From Torpedo marmorata (taxonomy: Eukaryota), in NCBI GenBank assembly GCA_977017645.1, contig OZ360230.1:75268001-75332000 (forward strand): a stretch of 64,000 nt of DNA, in the 5' to 3' direction. Shown here piece by piece: positions 14,731 through 64,000 of this stretch (position 1 is the stretch's first letter; every line of letters starts with the position of its first letter). The translations under genes and the position numbers were made by a program. Below the pieces are notes generated by a model. It had not been told where the DNA came from. It saw nothing but the letters and a program-made list of their open reading frames with translations, and did not search any database.

Positions 14731-16676
14731 ATTTCTCATTGTTTGCACTTATTAAGTTTACCTTTCTTGGTCAGTCTTCAATGTAGTTTCGAAAGGAGGC
14801 AAATTCATTCACAATTAGTCAATAAAAATTGAAAATACAATTGAGACATCAGGTTACAAATGATAAAAAGACAGATACACGAAACAACTTATTTTCATTA
14901 GAAAAAAAGAATGAAACGAAGAGACACATGATCTTGGCAGTTAAATGCTGAAAATGCAGAATAATAGCAATAATAATGAAACATTATTAGAACTCAAAGG
15001 GATATAAACATAAATTTGGCAAATCATAAATGAAAAGTGAATATTTTTGTTTTTTTTGAGCAATATACTCAGAATAGATTTTAAACATACATTTTTTTGC
15101 TTTAGCAATTTAGAAAGGAGCTATTTCAGGATGTAATTACAATTTTCAAACATAAAAGATCAAATATTTCATTCAGTGTGGCTTGGAATGCATGTGAAGA
15201 TCAGTAAAGTGGATTCAATTGCTGGATTGCATCCCTGGAACTTTGACAATCACTTGGAGGACATAGATGAAATTTCAGCCCTCTCTTGGAAGTTTTCCCT
15301 CTGGTTACTCCCCTTCAACAGGGGATTAAGCAAGTTCAGGAGAATCTTTTGGCAGAGACATATTGCAATCAGATGTAGACACAATGCACTTAATAGCCTT
15401 CACACATTCCATGAGCTCCCCTATCCAAAACGGAGAATTTGGAATGGAGAAAAAAGATGATAATTTTTTTGAAAATATTGACATTGAAAAATTAGTTCCA
15501 AAAATAAAAATTCTAATAAGATATGTTGTTAAGCTTAAGGTAATAAAGCCATATTTTCTTTGCAGAATCAAAATATTCAAAGCACATTGAGGGTTAGATT
15601 GTGAGGAAAACAAATCAAGGTACTTTTAATTTCTATACTAGGCAAAAGTTGATGCAAGTTTAAATGCCACTGATCATAATGTTAATGGAAGAAAATCACC
15701 GTGGCTTACACAAACCAAGATCCCAACCAGTCAAGAAATCCAAAAGGAGCTTGAATATAGATTACTGGTGTGAAGACGTTACACGAATATTACACCAATT
15801 AAGGTTTTGGACAAATAGGATAAGCATGTTTTAATTATCTAGGTCAATACATAGTGCAGATGAAGGAAGAATGATAAATGACTGATAAGTAAATGAATAT
15901 TCTATTTTGGATATATTGCCGATTATTTCTTTCATACGAATTATTTTGCAAATGAAACATTTTTGCATTAAAGGTGATGTGCAAATGGTCTCCAAGTATA
16001 CTATTGTTATTGGTGTATCTTACAAACCTGTGCGGCTGTGGAAAGTAAGAATTTTGGGGCATCTGTACATTGAGAATTTATTGTCATATACATAAGTACA
16101 TTCAGAATGGCAAGTTATTAGAAAGTGTAAACACATTAACTTTTAGTATGATCTGCTGAAAATTGTCAGAGCTCTCGTGATTTCAAAGATTTTTGAACCT
16201 TGGTGCCATGGACAACCTTTTGTGGGAGTATTCATTCTCTATATACAGAAGGGAAACATTTTAATCTGGAGAGCACATATTCTCAGAATTTCACATTCAG
16301 CTAAGTATATTTTGCAAAGTTTGCGGCAATCCCCAAACCAAGAATGATTAAGTGGAGCATTTCCTGCTATCAATTGCCCCATCACTAGTCATTCTTGATG
16401 TGGGAACTTCATACTGATGTTTGGCCCCCAATATACCGTATATTTTGGCGTATAAGTCGACTCGCGGATAAGTCGACCCCTTTTTTCAGCCTTATTTTAA
16501 TGGTTTTATTGTATATCCGGCGTATAAGTCGACCCCCAATTTTCGGGCTGTCCGGGCCTCCCAGCAACAATCCAAAATTTGTTACAACACCCCAATCGCC
16601 AAGTAACAAAGCTGTAAATTAAGCAAGTAAGTTAAAAAAAAACAGTAAAAAAAAACCTTTGCTTCTGGCCGGGAAG

Positions 16677-16833
16677 ATGCCAAACGGAGCTGGGTCTAAG
16701 TCTTCAGCTTCGGCTGCAGCCAGAGTCGGCGATGGGCGACTCCATTCTCCACATCGGGTGCGGTGCCGTCCTCATTGAAGAAGTCGCCCTGCTGCCCAAG
16801 TGTGCTCGGTGCAGGAACCACGGCTACGTGTCG
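16677..16833 (+). pseudogene. dmrt1: Captured dmrt1-like exon-1 fragment (N-terminus to first half of the DM domain), frameshifted
   Basis: ATG CCA AAC (MPN) at 16677; AAG AAG TCG CCC tg CTG CCC AAG TGT GCT CGG TGC AGG AAC CAC GGC TAC GTG TCG = KKSP[-]LPKCARCRNHGYVS, matching vertebrate DMRT1 KKSPRLPKCARCRNHGY(A/V)S; truncated before PLKGHKR. Confidence 0.8.
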
Positions 16834-17140
16834 GCTCCCAGGCAGGAGTGGCGACCTCGTTCTCCCGGGCAGGAGCGGCGACCTCGTTCTCCCGGGCAGG
16901 AGTGGCGACGTCGTTCTCCCGAGCAGGTGCGGCGACCTCGTTCTCTCGGGCAGGAGCGGCGACCTCGTTCTCCCGGGCAGGAGCGGCGACCTCGTTCTTT
17001 CGGCAGGTCGGGAACGGACTCGGACTATGTGGCAGGAGCGGGAACCTCACCCTACCGGCCAGGAGCCTCGGCTTACCGGGCAGGAGCCTCGGCTTACCGG
17101 GCAGGAGCGGCGACCTCAGGCTCCCGGGTAGGAGCGGGGA
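16834..17140 (+). repeat. GC-rich minisatellite (about six 27-bp units, then 21-bp units)
   Basis: tctcccgggcaggagcggcgacctcgt tandem repeats, then ggcaggagcctcggcttaccg repeats. Confidence 0.9.
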
Positions 17141-18475
17141 CCTTGGGCTCTACAATTGTAGAATGTCTGTGTGGTTTATGGCAGCGCCCGGCGGTGGGGA
17201 GGTGTCGGGGAGCGGCGGCACCAGCGGTGGGGAGGTGCTTCCAGCTTCGACCTATACGCCAAATCAGTTTTTCATGGGTCGACTTATACGCCAAATCGGG
17301 TTTTCAAGGGTCGACTTATACGTCGAATCGGCATGGAGTAGTTTTTGAGCTGATTTTAAGGTCTCAAAAGTATATCCGGCGTATAAGTCGACCCCTGTTT
17401 TTTGAGAGATTTTTGAGGGTTTCAAGACTCGACTTATACGCCGAAATATACGGTACTTGAAAGTGCAAATTGGCTGTTTGTATCTGGGGCCTGGACAACA
17501 CCATTGTACTCCCTTCATTTCCAGCCAGAAATCCTCATTTGTTTCCAAACCACCATATTACAAAGGTTGTAGCCAAATCAACCCCCAATGTAAGAATGCA
17601 ATGCACCAAAGCTGTAGACCATTCGATCACATGCTCTTTGTTGAACCACAAAAGACAAGCTACATTATGCAAAATCCTGTTCTTCGAAAACAAAACTAAA
17701 TTGATGCAGTAACTTCCCCTCAAGATCATTTTCAGAGAAGAGTAATGACCTTCTTGCTAATGATACAAAAAGAGGCCAATTGTTCATCAGATCCATGTCT
17801 TCTCCCTGTAGAGCAATCCCATCATTCCCATTCCCCCTGTGCATATTTCCCTGTAGCCCTGCAATTTGTTTCCTCTCACATCCCCATCAATTTCCCTTCG
17901 ATTCTTTTTGTCATTAACCTACATTGGAGAGTAATTTACAGTAGACAATTAACCTACCAATGCTTTCAAATTTGGCAGGAAACCAGATCACCCGGAGGAA
18001 ATCATCATCAGGGATCGGGAGTACAGAGCTTTCGTGCTGTCCTAGCCAAATCCTCCAAATTTTCACAGTTGGTTGTTTCTAATTTGCTATTTATAGAACT
18101 GTTCACTTCACAATTTGCTGATACAACAACAATGCCAACATTGCAAATGCAATCAAATCACATGAATTACTTTAGGGTTGCTTTCCTGGGATGTGCAGTT
18201 TTTAAATACCTTTCACAATTCTGTCAAAGGAGCTATCAAAAGATGGGCCCCAATTTTAAAAATGACACCAAATTGATTAGCTCTGTTTGAAAAACAGCAT
18301 CATCTTAAAAATGAACATATTCATTTCAAATAGTGAGTAAAAGCTAAACCAAAAAATCATGTTTTTTAATAATCATAAAATCATAGAAACTAACCCTACT
18401 ATTGGTTACTTGATATCTATGCCATCAAAATATTATCTTGTCTTGTTCACCCAATCTAAATCTAAGTTTCATATA

Positions 18476-32825: not shown

Positions 32826-32921
32826 CCTGCCGGGAGGCCGACATCCCCACTCCTGCCGGTGGGAGGCCGACGTCCCCGCTCCTGCCGGTGGGAAGTCGAT
32901 GTCCCCGCTCCTGCCGGGAGC
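32826..32921. repeat. GC-rich tandem repeat (about three units of 25-29 bp)
   Basis: cctgccggtgggaggccgacgtccccgct-like units. Confidence 0.7.
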
Positions 32922-33019
32922 CCGAAGTGGCGCTGGGTAACTAGGGGCAACGGCGTCACCTCGCAACCTACGTTGTGATTTGGAATGCATGCGCAGATTG
33001 CCGTCGCTCTCTCTCCCTC

Positions 33020-61647: not shown

Positions 61648-64000
<2,353 letters not shown>

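Follow-up and report, generated by a model that had tools for sequence, protein, structure and literature searches.

How did part of the gene dmrt1 come to lie inside a small transposon of the ray Torpedo marmorata, how far has it spread, and does it do anything there? These questions are raised by a 1,018-bp element in a 64,000-nucleotide stretch of the genome (NCBI GenBank assembly GCA_977017645.1, contig OZ360230.1, positions 75,268,001 to 75,332,000 of the forward strand), which we call the window. An earlier note, made from the sequence of the window alone, described a pogo-type element that had captured part of dmrt1 exon 1 and might have dispersed it genome-wide. We are nearly certain that the capture and the spread took place. 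The element belongs to a non-autonomous family of the Passer type, in thousands of copies, which carries the leader of dmrt1 together with portions of exon 1 and intron 1. This DNA is probably passive cargo moved by the transposase of a partner element.

A transposon with dmrt1 DNA inside

The element occupies exactly the coordinates that the note gave it (16436-17453), with TA on both sides. Its inverted ends are 28 nt each (16436-16463 and 17426-17453); with the TA included they are 30 nt and 93% complementary, and 24 of the first 25 nt agree. As the note had said, the element appears to lack a transposase: its two long plus-strand frames match no Pfam family at E 1e-4. The parts are as follows.

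16434-16435: left TA target-site duplication.
16436-16463, plus strand: left terminal inverted repeat (TIR), 28 nt, identified as one of an inverted-repeat pair; the pattern of its first 25 nt has 26,319 matches in the genome.
16436-16539, plus strand: Passer (pogo) 5' arm, in which GGCGTATAAGTCGAC motifs recur, identified by its motif family and by identity to transposase-bearing copies.
16535-16676, plus strand: dmrt1 leader upstream of the start codon (transcription start unmapped) with an internal deletion near the 5' end; aligns with 1165-1178 and 1220-1350 of the dmrt1 locus L013.
16677-16837, plus strand: coding part of dmrt1 exon 1 that starts at the ATG and ends with RNHGYVSA; it has the first third of the DM domain and indels of +1, -44, and -1.
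16832-16837, plus strand: CGGCTC microhomology at the exon 1-intron 1 deletion join; CGGCTC is found at 1544-1549 and about 1701-1706 of L013.
16838-17147, plus strand: GC-rich minisatellite, 6.1 copies of a 27-bp unit followed by variant units; a relative of the 30-bp minisatellite of dmrt1 intron 1.
17148-17245, plus strand: remnant of the Passer 3' junction (TACAATT) and a stretch rich in G that is not matched in 20 kb around dmrt1 exon 1.
17246-17453, plus strand: 3' Passer arm with 32-bp subterminal repeats and the right TIR (17426-17453), identified by identity to transposase-bearing copies.
17454-17455: right TA target-site duplication.

Translation confirms the start codon at 16677, which opens with the MPN of human DMRT1 and continues as MPNGAGSKSSASAAA, and the KKSP and LPKCARCRNHGYVSA that follow in other frames. 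Altogether the interior is spread over three frames, with MPNGAGSKSSASAAA, GDSILHI, SGAVPSSLKKSP, and LPKCARCRNHGYVSA. The ATG frame has 33 codons and stops before the DM piece. We found no host exon near the insertion in 82 of the 85 long frames of the window, which held retroelement and transposon domains only; the three further frames are those of the element itself and were excluded, and short exons would escape such a scan.

To find the parent, we searched this 6.2-Gb genome in six frames for the DM family, which gave 3,769 candidates; 150 were scored, 87 matched, and 30 loci were fetched. Among these 30, L013 (contig C2) has an exon that begins MPNGAGSKSS and holds the whole DM domain. 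Two more dmrt genes, presumably dmrt3 and dmrt2, lie within 360 kb after it. The proteins closest to it in the database are DMRT1 of rays and sharks, and 10 of these 11 start at the same ATG. From the protein matches and the synteny with two dmrt genes, we identify L013 as dmrt1.

Window positions 16547-16837 align with L013 positions 1220-1549 with 253 of 277 bases identical (E 2e-67, pairwise). The alignment breaks at a +1 (near 16733), a -44 (16753/16754), and a -1 (16788/16789), or three indels rather than the two single-base losses of the note. On its own, the DM piece matches Pfam PF00751 with E 4e-4, which is under the curated cut-off. The other 29 fetched DM loci have no DNA match to the element, and we reject dmrt2, dmrt3, and dmrtA as parents of the cargo.

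The cargo is larger than had been noticed. It further takes in the intron-1 minisatellite and, before the ATG, some 130 nt of leader. In L013, CGGCTC flanks the 152 nt that are missing from the element, where it joins exon 1 to the minisatellite; with this deletion the splice donor and what remained of the DM domain were lost. In older copies of the family, unique intron-1 DNA continues into the minisatellite repeat. Because intron DNA is present, the cargo is not a retrocopy, and the TIR ends also speak against a processed retrocopy. Together, the alignments show a capture at the DNA level, intron included, from the single dmrt1 locus. The arms and ends of the dmrt1-bearing Passer elements have no match within the 20 kb that we fetched around dmrt1 exon 1, and we did not see the element's junctions in the dmrt1 locus itself. 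About 5 kb into dmrt1 intron 1 (L062; 6773-7617 in L013 coordinates) there is an 845-bp TA-flanked element with the CCGTA ends of another family and a GC-rich interior.

Thousands of copies

The suggestion of genome-wide dispersal was right. A 24-mer of the DM piece has 838 exact matches in the genome (424 and 414 on the two strands), one of which is the gene, and a 25-mer of the leader has 8,099 (3,976 and 4,123). Reversed-pattern controls for these two k-mers and for the TIR 25-mer gave 0 matches. We estimate that the leader-bearing family has about 19,000 copies (12,000-40,000), given that 8 of 19 DM matches in a small sample from the first 63 Mb of contig C1 had the exact leader 25-mer. 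From another small sample, in which 4 of 9 had the exact 24-mer, again on one contig, there would be about 1,900 copies with the DM piece.

These copies moved as transposons do. Both ends were found in 25 of 29 sister loci, 24 of which have TA on both sides. In a second set of 30 copies, ordered by position, the 5' TA is present in 29 and the 3' TA in all 27 for which that end was found. Nine of these 30 hold the DM piece and 1 holds part of it, 19 run from the ATG directly into the minisatellite with no coding DNA after the ATG, and 1 has neither. Sister copies have different flanks and their own target duplications, as expected if they multiplied by transposition. Contigs from public sequencing runs under three organism labels contain many variants of the family; in X2, X4, and X5 they bridge the arm-cargo junction and cross the 44-nt deletion. 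One of the three labels may be the host itself, so the family is common to at least two taxa.

The carrier and its partner

If we search by TIR alone, 12 of the 21 elements found carry transposase DNA and 9 carry dmrt1 DNA. The 5' arm of the window element is identical at 95-99 of 104 bases to 9 transposase-bearing copies, as compared to 69-78 for an older Passer family, and its last 120 nt have 110-118 identities to 6 transposase-bearing copies. The transposase of this family has BrkDBD, HTH_Tnp_Tc5, and DDE_1 domains and DD35D spacing (L083), which are given as marks of the Passer family of pogo (PMC7386202). The element and its partner also have a TA duplication and TIRs of at most 40 bp in common, as Passer elements do. 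By domains, spacing, TA, and TIR, we assign the autonomous partner to an abundant Passer (pogo, DD35D) element. Recent activity of the family is evident from the many Passer copies (L069-L093) that are 91-98% alike and still have transposase frames of 300-440 codons. Unlike the autonomous Passer elements described in the parts of PMC7386202 that we used, the window element has no transposase, and the shared arms lead us to infer that it was mobilised in trans by the Passer enzyme. The word "Chondrichthyes" does not occur in the main text of that paper.

The cargo was trimmed in stages

When the exon of the gene itself served as query, four copies of interest emerged. Three of them (L095-L097) lack the 44-nt deletion, extend to position 38 of the 47 in the DM profile, and have arms of the older Passer family; the fourth, L098, has the deletion. 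In other copies the arms are intermediate, sharing 85-88 of 104 bases with the young type and 79-82 with the old, and the cargo is intermediate too. The lesions are shared and nested: a loss of 62 nt across the splice donor; then -44; then -1 and the CGGCTC join; then +1; and finally the loss of all coding DNA after the ATG. In a tree of 25 rows, support of 100/99 separates the young copies from the old ones plus the gene, and most other forks are open (3 loci without anchors were left out, and the bootstrap had not settled). Rows lacking anchors were likewise dropped from one copy alignment (3 of 30). These comparisons show that the cargo was trimmed step by step, and that over the same series old Passer arms gave way to young ones via intermediates.

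At the 5' capture junction, comparison with cargo-free old elements shows that CC is common to arm and gene, with 6 of 7 bases matching over CC.CCAA. Apparent microhomologies of 2-6 nt, including CGGCTC and TC, are present at junctions and deletions.

Young copies differ by 2.8% from the majority base of each column (1.5% without CpG) and by 10% from the gene. Pairwise divergence is 5.2% at all sites versus 2.9% at non-CpG sites, which is CpG decay. At the sites where other rays and sharks have GV, T, S, and S, the old copies still have these residues, and the host's own dmrt1 has lost them. Thus, the apparent 6-nt insertion in the window copy is an older state of dmrt1, and therefore the DNA went from the gene to the element.

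Transfer to other transposon families

The genome has 1,133 matches to a pattern that picks out copies with the -44 lesion but not the +1, and many of them lack the DM piece. Of the first 30 such loci, 15 have Passer ends (two are one element), 7 belong to a second TA-flanked family, 6 have hAT-type ends, and 2 are unresolved. The second TA-flanked family, which we take to be Tigger-like, starts with CAGGT, and no autonomous partner for it was found. In the hAT-end carriers, the 8-bp duplications match at 7-8 of 8 bases in all four cases with both ends found. Three hAT copies keep the Passer junction remnant, which is absent from the gene. Because all of these copies share the lesion of the Passer line and hAT copies keep the Passer remnant, the cargo passed from Passer to the other families. 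Derived cargo is thus shown to lie between the ends of two further families, one TA-flanked and one hAT. Copies whose cargo lacks the DM piece were seen in the second TA-flanked family (L217, L235, L236, L238-L240, L244) and in this second hAT family (L220, L222, L228, L232, L242, L245).

Other captured genes

Is there something special about DM genes? A control search with the only other family that we tried, Forkhead, gave 82 candidates and 60 matches, as compared to 3,769 DM candidates. Of the 30 fetched DM loci, 21 (L005, L006, L009-L012, L014-L024, L026, L028-L030) are copies in another hAT family, with ends CAGTGGCGGATTAAC; their cargo is the exon that encodes the whole DM domain, with part of intron 1, from what we take to be a dmrtA-type gene (L004/L063; C2, 256.48 Mb). 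They are 87-93% identical to this parent and have 8-bp duplications in 9 of the 10 cases with both ends found; a 26-mer across the exon-intron boundary has 45 exact matches, gene included. Several have open DM frames, and 20 of the 21 have no in-frame methionine upstream of the DM domain. The family has 1,352 ends, and among 30 that we sampled (L186-L215), just 1 had this cargo. The rest had varied interiors, often GC-rich and promoter-like, and further captured gene starts are likely among them.

Another cargo of the old Passer family is a piece of map4k4 that spans the first exon, its splice donor, and the GC-rich DNA before it (L146, L166, L174-L185). This cargo was found in 2 of 30 old Passer loci and at 17 candidate places in the genome. 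Its best structure-bank matches are all MAP4K4 (E 0.014 over 18 residues); no parent locus was found among 12 loci fetched. Given map4k4 in old Passer and the varied interiors in the hAT family, we find no support for DM genes as a special target; many GC-rich gene starts have thus entered DNA transposons in this genome. Among the captures seen, dmrt1 is the sole one to reach very high copy number.

We also note an old Passer element (L152) with a nested TA-flanked element that holds a further apparent first exon, with a splice donor, and the same minisatellite. In the window, three 29-bp units on the minus strand (32826-32922) are 79% like the element's minisatellite and lack Passer ends. Two divergent DM exons (L025, L027) lie beside the dmrt clusters on C22 and C2, and one is perhaps decayed. 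Elsewhere in the window, an open frame of 625 codons (62011-63885, plus strand) has no Pfam match at E 1e-4; we take it to resemble a Buster/Charlie-type hAT transposase.

Comparison with known systems

The element is a Pack-TIR by every feature that we checked: TIRs and target-site duplication, a parent in the same genome, a parent without the same transposon, capture at the DNA level, microhomology, and multiple copies. The plant Pack-MULEs are also similar to the elements of this genome in that they capture GC-rich gene starts, with many cargos per family. They belong to a different superfamily with 9-10 bp duplications, and small-RNA effects on parent genes have been reported in plants. 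The Xenopus sex gene dm-W is derived from dmrt1 and is grouped with medaka dmrt1bY.

In the parts of the survey of animal Pack-TIRs that we used (PMC8277862), there were 370 in 100 genomes, of which four were multicopy; the described case has three copies, and Ssk-FB4 of the fly has four. Those elements resemble ours in being non-autonomous, with transposon arms, a target duplication, a host-gene interior captured at the DNA level, junction microhomology, and a parent without the transposon. They also resemble it in having hAT and Tc/mariner-type carriers, GC-rich cargo, and multiple copies via transposition. Template switching followed by transposition was proposed as their origin (PMC8277862). 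The elephant shark, the sole cartilaginous fish surveyed there, had 0 Pack-TIRs, and neither "dmrt" nor "map4k4" occurs in 12 supplement files of that paper. In contrast, our element has at least 8,099 copies, staged derived subfamilies, and one cargo in three carrier families. It exceeds the cut-and-paste cases described so far by about three orders of magnitude, and its cargo changed in stages and crossed from one superfamily to another.

Bat Helitrons offer another comparison. HelibatN3, with the start of the NUBPL gene, has about a thousand copies, and all captures together have 12,382 (PMC4224331, as far as we consulted it). There too, the promoter or 5' untranslated region, the first exon, and part of the first intron were amplified, with a bias towards gene 5' ends. 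Unlike Helitrons, which are rolling-circle elements without TIRs or a TA duplication, our element is of the cut-and-paste kind, and this single capture rivals their total. Animal Pack-TIRs (PMC8277862) and bat Helitrons (PMC4224331) are closer comparisons than the dmy and dm-W of the note. In the medaka story as told in the parts of PMC6825717 that we used, dmrt1 duplicates and DNA transposons (Izanagi) also appear together. There, a whole or DM-complete duplicate is the gene and transposons contributed regulatory or exon sequence; here, the transposon carries a DM-incomplete piece. In a literature search that for most papers took in listings and the opening of the abstract, we found no prior report of dmrt1 captured by a DNA transposon, or of this family, which may be catalogued in Repbase or Dfam without its cargo being noted.

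Does the cargo do anything?

The account that we consider probable, with the cargo as a passenger, would run as follows. An older Passer element would have acquired dmrt1 DNA while a broken element was being repaired or replicated, through template switching that was guided by microhomology of 2-6 nt. Deletions then trimmed the cargo stepwise while the arms shifted from the old to the young Passer type, and every trimmed form would have been copied in trans by the Passer transposase, whose long open frames are still present in many copies. Abundant cargo would be a frequent template for further captures by other families. No DM protein would be made from the cargo, and it would have no function for the host.

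A protein role does seem unlikely from the sequences. None of the dmrt1-cargo copies that we found has a whole DM domain; the longest ends at Pfam position 38 of 47, without the recognition helix. The DM domain needs both a zinc module and a C-terminal recognition helix, according to the parts of PMC1931443 that we used. So the note's idea that the element is a source of new DM-domain exons is not borne out, given also the 33-codon frame of the window copy. There is no sign of constraint by codon position: 49 copies have 16, 15, and 17 alleles at the three positions (p 0.75, one duplicate removed), and the same test on 9 copies of the frame-open type gave p 0.33. CpG sites decay faster than others, and in the most common subfamily the coding DNA is gone. 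We also considered ACAATGT, a DMRT binding core, at the 3' junction, and rejected it as it is present in 1 of 28 copies.

Several points weigh against a passive cargo. First, the codon-position tests are small. Second, the type with the -44 and the -1 reopens the ATG frame into half of the DM domain and is open in 8 of 30 loci; this is also what selection for an open frame would give. This open frame reaches the first third of the domain and then runs into the repeats. We view it as weak counter-evidence, because a second indel restores the frame one time in three. Third, the cargo has done better (9 of 21 elements, several waves, three carrier families) than a neutral founder would need to, and it may benefit the element. 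Fourth, minisatellite-like units also occur in other elements (L152 and window 32826-32922), which leaves the ultimate origin of the minisatellite open. Finally, the samples behind our proportions were drawn from the first 8-105 Mb of contig C1 only.

The third point leads to an alternative that we think unlikely. The GC-rich leader and minisatellite of a gonad gene might keep the copies open or active in the germ line, so that elements with cargo would multiply faster than empty ones; the cargo would then be selfish and not neutral for the element. This would account for cargo in 9 of 21 sampled elements with this TIR, for the retention of leader and minisatellite where coding DNA was lost (19 of 30), for a cargo that outlived the turnover of the arms and reached two other families, and for the other captured pieces also being GC-rich gene starts. 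On the other hand, CpG decay shows that the copies are methylated in the germ line, and founder effects and nearness to the arm explain the retention equally well.

We are more doubtful that the copies act on dmrt1 in trans. Anti-transposon PIWI-interacting RNAs (piRNAs) or small interfering RNAs could pair with the dmrt1 leader and exon 1, which are about 90% identical to the copies, and tune its level in the gonad. There are thousands of copies on both strands, with exact stretches of at least 24 nt shared with the gene. The gene itself has changed in the shared part (losses of 6 nt and 7 nt and three residue changes), as escape would predict. But the copies have diverged from the gene by about 10%, and neutral drift would be enough to explain the changes in the gene, since its N-terminus is variable and another ray protein (P0006) has lost GV as well. 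A stronger version, in which transposon silencing draws in the sex gene (with dmrt1 pieces in three families and several ray taxa, gonadal piRNAs would partly set the dose of dmrt1, whose 5' end would be changing to escape), strikes us as just as improbable.

That one copy became a DM-domain gene, like medaka dmrt1bY or Xenopus dm-W, is very improbable. The ATG frame of L096 does run through the zinc-binding part (PF00751, E 6e-16), and a whole DM domain still lies in open frames of the dmrtA-type copies carried by hAT elements. However, the first cysteine is changed in L096, the window copy is frameshifted, 20 of 21 dmrtA-type copies have no upstream in-frame methionine, and the dmrt1 cargo that we found ends before the C-terminal helix that DNA binding requires (PMC1931443, in part). 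As for an assembly artefact, a retrocopy, or a chance likeness to the DM motif, the protein match of the window piece is below the Pfam cut-off, but we have practically no doubt that this is wrong, given a DNA match that takes in leader and intron, different flanks and target duplications for each copy, independent public contigs that bridge the arm-cargo junction, and a Forkhead control without such inflation (82 versus 3,769 candidates).

Wider meaning

Gene capture by cut-and-paste transposons of animals has been thought to be rare and nearly always single-copy, and here one capture has at least 8,099 copies. Its readable intermediates, the preserved older state of the gene, and the transfer between superfamilies offer a direct route to study how cargo moves between elements. 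There are also practical consequences. The copies will inflate counts of DMRT genes (87 scored DM matches and 3,769 candidates, versus about 8 genes), and in these rays they will interfere with primers and probes for dmrt1 and with the mapping of reads. Finally, dmrt1 is a dose-sensitive testis gene whose duplicates became sex determiners elsewhere, so this genome is a natural test of whether small RNAs directed at transposons act on the parent gene in the vertebrate gonad.

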